Positions 2,434 through 3,399 of a stretch of 7,050 nucleotides of DNA are shown here, piece after piece (the first letter of the stretch is position 1; each line of letters opens with the position of its first letter). The notes under the pieces were generated by a model. It was not told the DNA's origin. It ran no database searches and worked only from the letters and a program-made list of their open reading frames with translations. Both the position numbers and the translations under genes were made by a program. Source of the DNA: Escherichia coli (GTDB lineage: Bacteria; Pseudomonadota; Gammaproteobacteria; Enterobacterales; Enterobacteriaceae); the NCBI RefSeq assembly GCF_003334255.1, contig NZ_QOWU01000098.1. One strand, 5' to 3'.

Positions 2434-3399
2434 ATGAAAAAGAATAAGTACTCAACTCCCTTATGGATGCTTGCCACGATTCTTGCGGGTATGCTCTCCC
2501 CTATGCAATCAGCGGTGAATGGTCAATTAGGTCACTGGTTACAGGATGGTAATGCATGCGCAGTTATCTCCTTTGCCAGTGGTTTAGTCGTGATGTTTTT
2601 TATTATTATGGCGCGAAAAGAAACCCGGCAACAATTTGCGGCAATTCCTTCTCTGATTAAAAACCGAAAAGTTCCTCTCTGGAACTGGTTTGCCGGTCTC
2701 TGTGGAGCGATGGTGGTATTTTCTGAAGGCGCATCAGCCAGCGCACTCGGGGTCGCAACGTTTCAAACCGCACTGATCTCCGCGCTATTGCTGTCTGGTT
2801 TACTTTGCGATCGCTTTGGTATCGGTGTCGACGAGAAAAAATACTTTACCCCTTATCGCATCATCGGTGCATTATTTGCGGTTATTGCTACGATTTTTGT
2901 TGTGTCACCTCAGTGGCATTCTACCTCTTTCATCTTACTTGCCATTCTTCCGTTCTTAGCTGGTTTGCTTGCAGGATGGCAGCCCGCTGGAAATGCAAAA
3001 GTAGCTGAAGCTACGGGATCCATGCTGGTTTCAATCACCTAGAATTTCATCGTTGGATTTTGTGTTTTAGGCACAGCGCTAGCTATTCGTGTCGCATTAG
3101 GGCACGTCACTGTTCAATTACCAGATGTCTGGTGGATGTATCTTGGCGGCCCGCTTGGACTAATGTCTATCGGTTTAATGGCCATTTTGGTCAGAGGTCT
3201 GGGGTTACTGATGCTGGGGGTTGCTTCAACGGCGGGCCAGTTACTGGGATCAGTATTGATTGACGTATTAATTCCATCGCTGGGCAATAGCGTTTATCTG
3301 GTCACGATCATCGGAACACTGTTTGCACTGGTCGGTGCAATTGTTACCACTATTCCGGAATACAGAACCTCGAAAACAATGAAGAAAATGGAGGTATAA
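2434..3399 (+). pseudogene. 10-TM DMT-superfamily transporter (duplicated YdcZ/DUF606-like), interrupted by an in-frame amber codon TAG at 3040..3042
   Basis: ORF 2434..3042 (202 aa, hydrophobic helices; MQSAVNGQLGHWL motif) and ORF 3136..3399 are in the same frame. Translating the gap gives continuous hydrophobic sequence: ...GSMLVSIT * NFIVGFCVLGTALAIRVALGHVTVQLPDVWWMYLGGPLG...TAGQLLGSVLID.... There is no ATG/GTG/TTG or RBS between the TAG and the Met at 3136, so the second part is unlikely to be an independent gene. RBS AGGA at 2423..2426. Confidence 0.75.

Follow-up and report, generated by a model that had tools for sequence, protein, structure and literature searches.

Does the amber codon that interrupts a transporter frame in this stretch of Escherichia coli DNA mark one broken gene, a gene that works in pieces, a stop that is read through or an error in the source record? 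And if the gene is broken, was its loss selected, or is it one sign of a wider decay? We addressed these questions in the whole stretch of DNA analysed, which is 7,050 nucleotides long and is called the window here, together with complete E. coli genomes and orthologues from other genera.

One reading frame and one amber codon

The features that make up the interrupted gene are as follows.

2434..3399, + strand: transporter pseudogene, ten-helix (10-TM) DMT_YdcZ type, identified by homology as the STM3549 orthologue (translation, PF04657 repeats, orthologues at 63-99% identity, PGAP annotation)
2434..3042, + strand: truncated product of 202 aa, predicted to hold repeat 1 (TM1-5) and TM6 and to end at the start of TM7 (open reading frame list, hydropathy)
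3040..3042, + strand: amber codon W203am, TGG to TAG by a G-to-A transition at 3041 (homologue and DNA alignments, allele counts)
3136..3399, + strand: residual open reading frame of 87 aa, predicted TM8-10, tail of the pseudogene (frame, start context, orthologues)

Read directly from the window, TAG occupies positions 3040-3042 on the + strand in the context …TCA ATC ACC TAG AAT TTC…, and translation of 2434-3399 gives 321 codons with one internal stop (…MLVSIT, stop, NFIVGF…) ahead of the natural stop. The original prediction had described two open reading frames that share a frame and are separated by this TAG and nothing else, and both statements hold: the starts of 2434-3042 (202 aa) and 3136-3399 (87 aa) lie 702 bases apart, which is 234 x 3, and the TAG is the sole interruption of the frame. 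It had also reported no usable start between the stop and the next methionine. The 31 codons of 3043-3135 indeed contain no in-frame ATG, GTG or TTG, and the ATG at 3136 is without a spaced Shine-Dalgarno sequence; a GGTGG directly abuts this codon (M235), with no spacer. Judged by frame, start context and orthologues, the reading frame at 3136-3399 is the tail of the pseudogene, and a separate gene is excluded.

A two-repeat YdcZ-type transporter

A Pfam search on the read-through sequence finds two PF04657 (DMT_YdcZ) repeats, at residues 10-154 (E = 3.7e-30) and 169-303 (E = 1.3e-15), each covering the whole 140-position model, and a Kyte-Doolittle scan of the same protein finds ten hydrophobic segments, the seventh at about 196-225. 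Together, the two repeats and ten segments bear out the label of a 10-TM YdcZ-type transporter that had been given from the letters. Residue 203 falls at the start of the predicted TM7, inside repeat 2 and outside the linker between the repeats. Translation would therefore end at the start of TM7, leaving a fragment of repeat 1 and TM6 without TM7-10, and a truncation at this point would keep the pseudo-symmetric transporter from forming its second half.

Searched against the database with its stop masked, the protein gives full-length, single-chain PF04657 matches of about 306-342 aa. The best is a 321-aa cluster of 1,648 members (P0001), 99% identical over 100% of the length; matches in other genera follow at 93% (Citrobacter), 92% (Salmonella), 86-87% (Klebsiella) and 84% (Proteus) identity, with more distant ones at 63-79% in Anaerobiospirillum, Bifidobacterium and lactobacilli. 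Homology does not end at the stop, as residues 204-321 continue in frame at 99% identity to P0001 and 63-93% to other genera. Because the identity of the read-through product as a whole is 99% with P0001 and 92-93% with its counterparts in Salmonella and Citrobacter, the continuity of the frame beyond the stop is not due to chance. NCBIfam yielded a model for neither the transporter nor the GATase1-like protein encoded beside it, and literature searches on YdcZ/DMT and on Pmi1525, the Proteus relative of the last gene in the cluster, found nothing on function.

The ancestral codon is TGG

Residue 203 is tryptophan in 15 of the 15 full-length homologues aligned, which range from E. coli to Lactobacillus with identity down to 63%, and W203 sits in a motif, SITWNF, that is invariant in the same alignment. 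In the DNA alignment the TAG of the window stands opposite TGG in Citrobacter and in two E. coli strains, Nissle and 13P460A. The orthologue alignment that had been proposed as a check thus gives TGG (Trp) as the ancestral codon, and the DNA alignment upholds the description of the lesion as a substitution-type nonsense mutation and not a homopolymer artefact, the change being a single G-to-A.

The window differs from the Nissle allele at 3 of 966 bases: one difference is synonymous, at codon 159, one creates the stop at 203, and one gives Ser286 for Thr. Codon 159 is CCT in 12 of 12 TAG loci and in 0 of 14 TGG loci, and this constant association points to a single origin of TAG. Beyond the stop there are two non-synonymous polymorphisms. 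Ser286 (position 3290) is confined to the window-type TAG haplotype, with Thr in all other sequences examined. At position 3367 (codon 312), T312 and A312 each occur with TAG and with TGG; the existence of all four combinations implies intragenic recombination or, less likely, recurrence.

A segregating allele already annotated as a pseudogene

Alleles were counted with 55-mer probes carrying the variable base at position 28, a design in which no 28-base megablast seed spans the mismatch. Across 5,426 complete E. coli genomes, these allele-specific probes found TAG in 611 and TGG in 1,430; the gene is carried by about 2,010-2,120 of the 5,426, and the two counts account for these carriers. W203am is a real segregating allele, present in roughly 30% of gene-carrying E. 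coli genomes and occurring in strains from varied hosts and countries. The original prediction had concluded that the uptake step of the operon is probably inactive. The nonsense allele at its core is real, as the 611 genomes attest; the word uptake was an assumption, and the Pfam family name is that of a putative exporter.

In every TAG genome inspected, PGAP labels the locus "DMT family transporter, internal stop", a pseudogene. It calls an intact 321-aa protein in most of the TGG genomes inspected (S88, Nissle and others) and a shorter protein in 13P460A and DETEC-S589, both of them TGG genomes that carry other lesions. The 202-aa truncated product is itself called in 685 database members (cluster P0110). 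The nonsense pseudogene is thus already flagged in RefSeq/PGAP and known as an ordinary loss-of-function allele, and its position, context and distribution call for no new mechanism. The correct annotation for this strain is one pseudogene; 2434-3042 and 3136-3399 are not two genes.

Neighbouring genes and cluster identity

Three further genes flank the transporter on the same strand.

392..1605, + strand: rikA (HTH_DeoR + PfkB ribokinase, STM3547 orthologue), frameshifted (tblastn with the Citrobacter 404-aa protein)
772..776, + strand: G5 homopolymer within rikA, G6 in the in-frame allele (alignment with O145:H28 RM12761 and others)
1619..2377, + strand: GATase1-like 'glutamine amidotransferase' (STM3548 orthologue), intact (single-frame tblastn, Citrobacter aa 1-252)
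3402..4436, + strand: phosphotriesterase (PTE)-family gene (PF02126), orthologue of STM3550 and of Proteus Pmi1525, intact (PDB match, start context)

In Citrobacter freundii, four co-directional genes encode an HTH_DeoR+PfkB protein (404 aa), a GATase1_like protein (253), a DMT_YdcZ protein (323) and a PTE protein (344). Open reading frames and tblastn together give the same order in the window: HTH_DeoR/PfkB kinase, GATase1-like protein, DMT transporter, PTE. The first gene is named rikA by PGAP in some E. coli genomes, and the Citrobacter counterpart of the GATase1-like gene carries Pfam PF07090. The PTE-family protein has a full-length match to PDB 3rhg/4qsf, 'Amidohydrolase Pmi1525' (E = 4.7e-174), and for Pmi1525, an enzyme of the PTE family, an esterase activity stimulated by metal has been reported (PMC5341072). 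By homology and gene order, the interrupted gene is the orthologue of Salmonella enterica STM3549, third in the rikA-stm3548-stm3549-stm3550 cluster.

Published work on this cluster has shown STM3547 to be a ribokinase, which was named RikA; STM3548-STM3550 are uncharacterised, and the pathway proposed by the authors would serve an unknown carbon source (PMC13432705). That paper includes Escherichia in its list of genera with the rikA-stm3550 cluster and reports no study of STM3549 function (PMC13432705).

The PTE-family gene starts 2 bases past the natural stop of the transporter (window 3380-3404), and its strong GGAGG ribosome-binding site lies within the last codons of the transporter. The amber stop, 357 bases upstream, may lower expression of the PTE-family gene through Rho-dependent polarity. 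As this gene has its own ribosome-binding site, any such effect would be exerted through transcriptional polarity and not through lost translational coupling.

A frameshift in rikA

The transporter stop is not the sole operon lesion in the window: rikA is also dead, a second lesion that the original prediction had not mentioned. With tblastn, the Citrobacter 404-aa protein matches the window in frame 2 for aa 1-134 and in frame 1 for aa 123-405, a shift caused by contraction of G6 to G5 at 772-776. E. coli O145:H28 RM12761 is annotated with an intact 404-aa kinase, and the E. coli RikA allele that is intact over 404 aa shows the M90 and D343 features published for this protein (PMC13432705). 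Allele-specific probes found G5 in 245 and G6 in 1,717 complete E. coli genomes. The G5 frameshift is a minority allele and is not older than the amber stop.

Two other accounts of this lesion were rejected. A MAFFT gap against the Citrobacter sequence had placed the indel in a C-run, whereas realignment puts it in the G-run. The frameshift had also seemed to be fixed in E. coli and older than the amber codon, a view contradicted by the intact RM12761 kinase and the 1,717 G6 genomes. A 52-mer rikA probe with 1,959 matching genomes did not discriminate, as either allele can seed it, and a 'CCC-restored' version had no match in any genome. At least two haplotypes carry G5, which would reflect recurrent slippage or, in some assemblies, homopolymer sequencing error. 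By haplotype, the G5 contrast of 187:385 versus 58:1333 is large in numbers, but we do not rely on it because the genomes are not independent.

Lesions across the cluster

To see how the amber allele relates to the state of the rest of the cluster, we sampled ten genomes with TAG and ten with TGG in a systematic way. Further cluster lesions are present in 7 of the ten TAG and 4 of the ten TGG genomes, a difference that is not significant (p = 0.37). Those in TAG genomes include frameshifts in rikA and in the GATase gene, insertions of IS3 and IS1203, truncation by IS5 and, in the transporter, a second frameshift; those in TGG genomes are frameshifts or internal stops in rikA, a stop in the GATase gene and a deletion in the PTE gene. 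All four genes are intact in roughly half of the sampled TGG genomes. The other three genes are intact in three of the ten TAG genomes, which suggests either a young allele or continuing selection on the cluster without its transporter. Downstream of the stop, the remaining 119 codons are free of further stops in most TAG genomes; such a scarcity of extra stops is expected for a recent mutation, and is no positive sign of relaxed constraint.

The transporter itself has been disrupted more than once. Q25 is changed to TAA in DETEC-S589, a TGG strain in which the PGAP call is a shorter protein that begins at a later codon; the 5' end is truncated by IS1 in 13P460A, also a TGG strain, and by IS5 in PI12; and the FY10 copy has a 1-bp deletion, a frameshift, added to TAG. 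Independent lesions of this kind in several lineages would fit a dispensable, horizontally captured cluster that is eroding by mutation.

The island and its flanks

Sequence like that of the window (>=80% of its length at >=99% identity) occurs in 1,875 complete E. coli genomes, and the locus lies on an island preceded by cobUST and a tRNA-Asn gene. Downstream of the cluster, on the opposite strand, lie two remnants.

4476..4789, - strand: remnant of ggt that covers about 105 codons at its 3' end and is also frameshifted (tblastn, PGAP)
4847..6466, - strand: ISL3-family transposase pseudogene with internal stops, at the boundary of the putative captured segment (PGAP annotation mapped from L001 8847-10466)

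Citrobacter Ggt aa 478-582 matches the window in two frames by tblastn, and PGAP annotates the stub as a 'gamma-glutamyltransferase' pseudogene. The ISL3 element contains broken open reading frames at 4848-5009, 5088-6071 and 6129-6467. In C. freundii the four-gene cluster is followed by a full-length ggt on the opposite strand and then by DUF2756, GDPD and ugp genes. With a ggt stub beside a dead ISL3 gene, the segment looks as if it had been captured from a chromosome like that of Citrobacter or Salmonella, and the E. coli island segment that ends inside ggt appears to be such a captured chromosomal fragment.

Annotation in matching genomes also accounts for the two ends of the window: 89-196 (+ strand) is a short transposase-domain remnant beside the end of IS110/ISEc45, and 6751-7050 (- strand) is the start of a zinc-ribbon domain gene of a CP4-44-like island.

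Weighing the alternatives

Two readings would leave the gene functional. It might work in pieces, either as a dimer of the 202-aa half-transporter or with that product paired with the 87-aa fragment from M235. The idea draws some appeal from the architecture of the family, as single-repeat YdcZ proteins exist and repeat 1 (10-154) is complete in the 202-aa product, where it matches the whole 140-position YdcZ model. The break is in the wrong place for it, however: residue 203 lies in TM7, 35-50 residues past the repeat boundary (around 155-168), and the 202-aa fragment would carry a surplus sixth TM while TM7 would be absent from both fragments. No orthologue is split, and the ATG at 3136 has no properly spaced ribosome-binding site. 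We regard function in pieces as very improbable. A natural two-gene arrangement was rejected for its wrong break point, the lack of any start for 31 codons and the want of an orthologue split there. Orthologues that naturally encode two half-proteins divided at these positions had been named as the finding that would overturn the single-gene interpretation; all orthologues are instead single proteins of ~315-340 aa with W at the site, and the shorter database entries represent either this truncated E. coli allele or fragments at contig ends.

Read-through of the stop, by an amber-suppressor tRNA or by a near-cognate one, so that a functional full-length transporter is still made, is in keeping with the open and fully conserved frame downstream of TAG and with the intact rest of the operon in 3 of the 10 sampled TAG genomes. 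Yet no orthologue has a stop here, TGG is found in 1,430 E. coli genomes (70% of carriers), and 7 of the 10 sampled TAG genomes have further operon lesions. ARAGORN finds no tRNA genes in the 7,050-nt window; natural E. coli isolates are normally without amber suppressors, and basal UAG read-through in E. coli is about 1% or less. It is therefore highly unlikely that the stop is bypassed to useful effect, and programmed stop-codon recoding was rejected as a candidate since the stop is not conserved among orthologues. An origin of the TAG in faulty sequencing or assembly of the source record has almost no probability left to it: the identical TAG occurs in 611 independently assembled complete genomes, which rules out a read error, and the change is a substitution, not an alteration in homopolymer length.

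The remaining question is whether the loss was favoured. If knock-out of the transporter were adaptive in some E. coli lineages, selection could have carried the amber allele to ~30%, the transporter would admit something harmful, for example a toxic compound, or be costly, and the allele would be a marker of selection and not of neutral decay. In keeping with this are the frequency of TAG in diverse hosts and countries and the other independent disruptions of the gene, at least four in number (Q25 to TAA, IS1, IS5 and a frameshift). Set against them, frequencies in genome collections are dominated by clonal sampling, and lesions (frameshifts, internal stops and IS3 insertions) are no less frequent in rikA and the GATase1-like gene. 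Because the neighbours are disrupted at a comparable rate, the pattern argues for erosion of the whole cluster and not for selection on the transporter specifically, and we consider adaptive loss unlikely. W203am is, with little room for doubt, a true loss-of-function nonsense allele of the STM3549 orthologue, in what looks like a dispensable captured cluster that is eroding. The locus offers a clear case of a captured operon fragment decaying through several independent mutations, and the natural TAG/TGG pairs, with the other E. coli knock-outs, could provide ready genetic material for work on the phenotype of rikA-stm3550.

Comparison with known systems

One close counterpart is the intact E. 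coli allele (WP_000739817.1 / WP_000739816.1; Nissle 1917, S88), which occupies the same locus with the same flanks and has TGG at codon 203, where the window copy has TAG. STM3549 and its Citrobacter, Klebsiella and Proteus orthologues share their gene order and neighbours with the window. The Salmonella and Citrobacter proteins are 92-93% identical over the full length, whereas the window copy, with W203am, is predicted to yield no full protein. The surroundings differ too: the Citrobacter cluster adjoins an intact ggt-yhhA-ugpQ, while the E. coli copy has only the ggt stub and the dead ISL3 element. Within E. coli K-12, the YdcZ-type proteins belong to the same PF04657 family and consist of a single repeat of about 140-150 aa with 5 TM. 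The window gene, unlike these, is the fused two-repeat, 10-TM form, and the point at which it is truncated does not restore a K-12-like single-repeat YdcZ protein.
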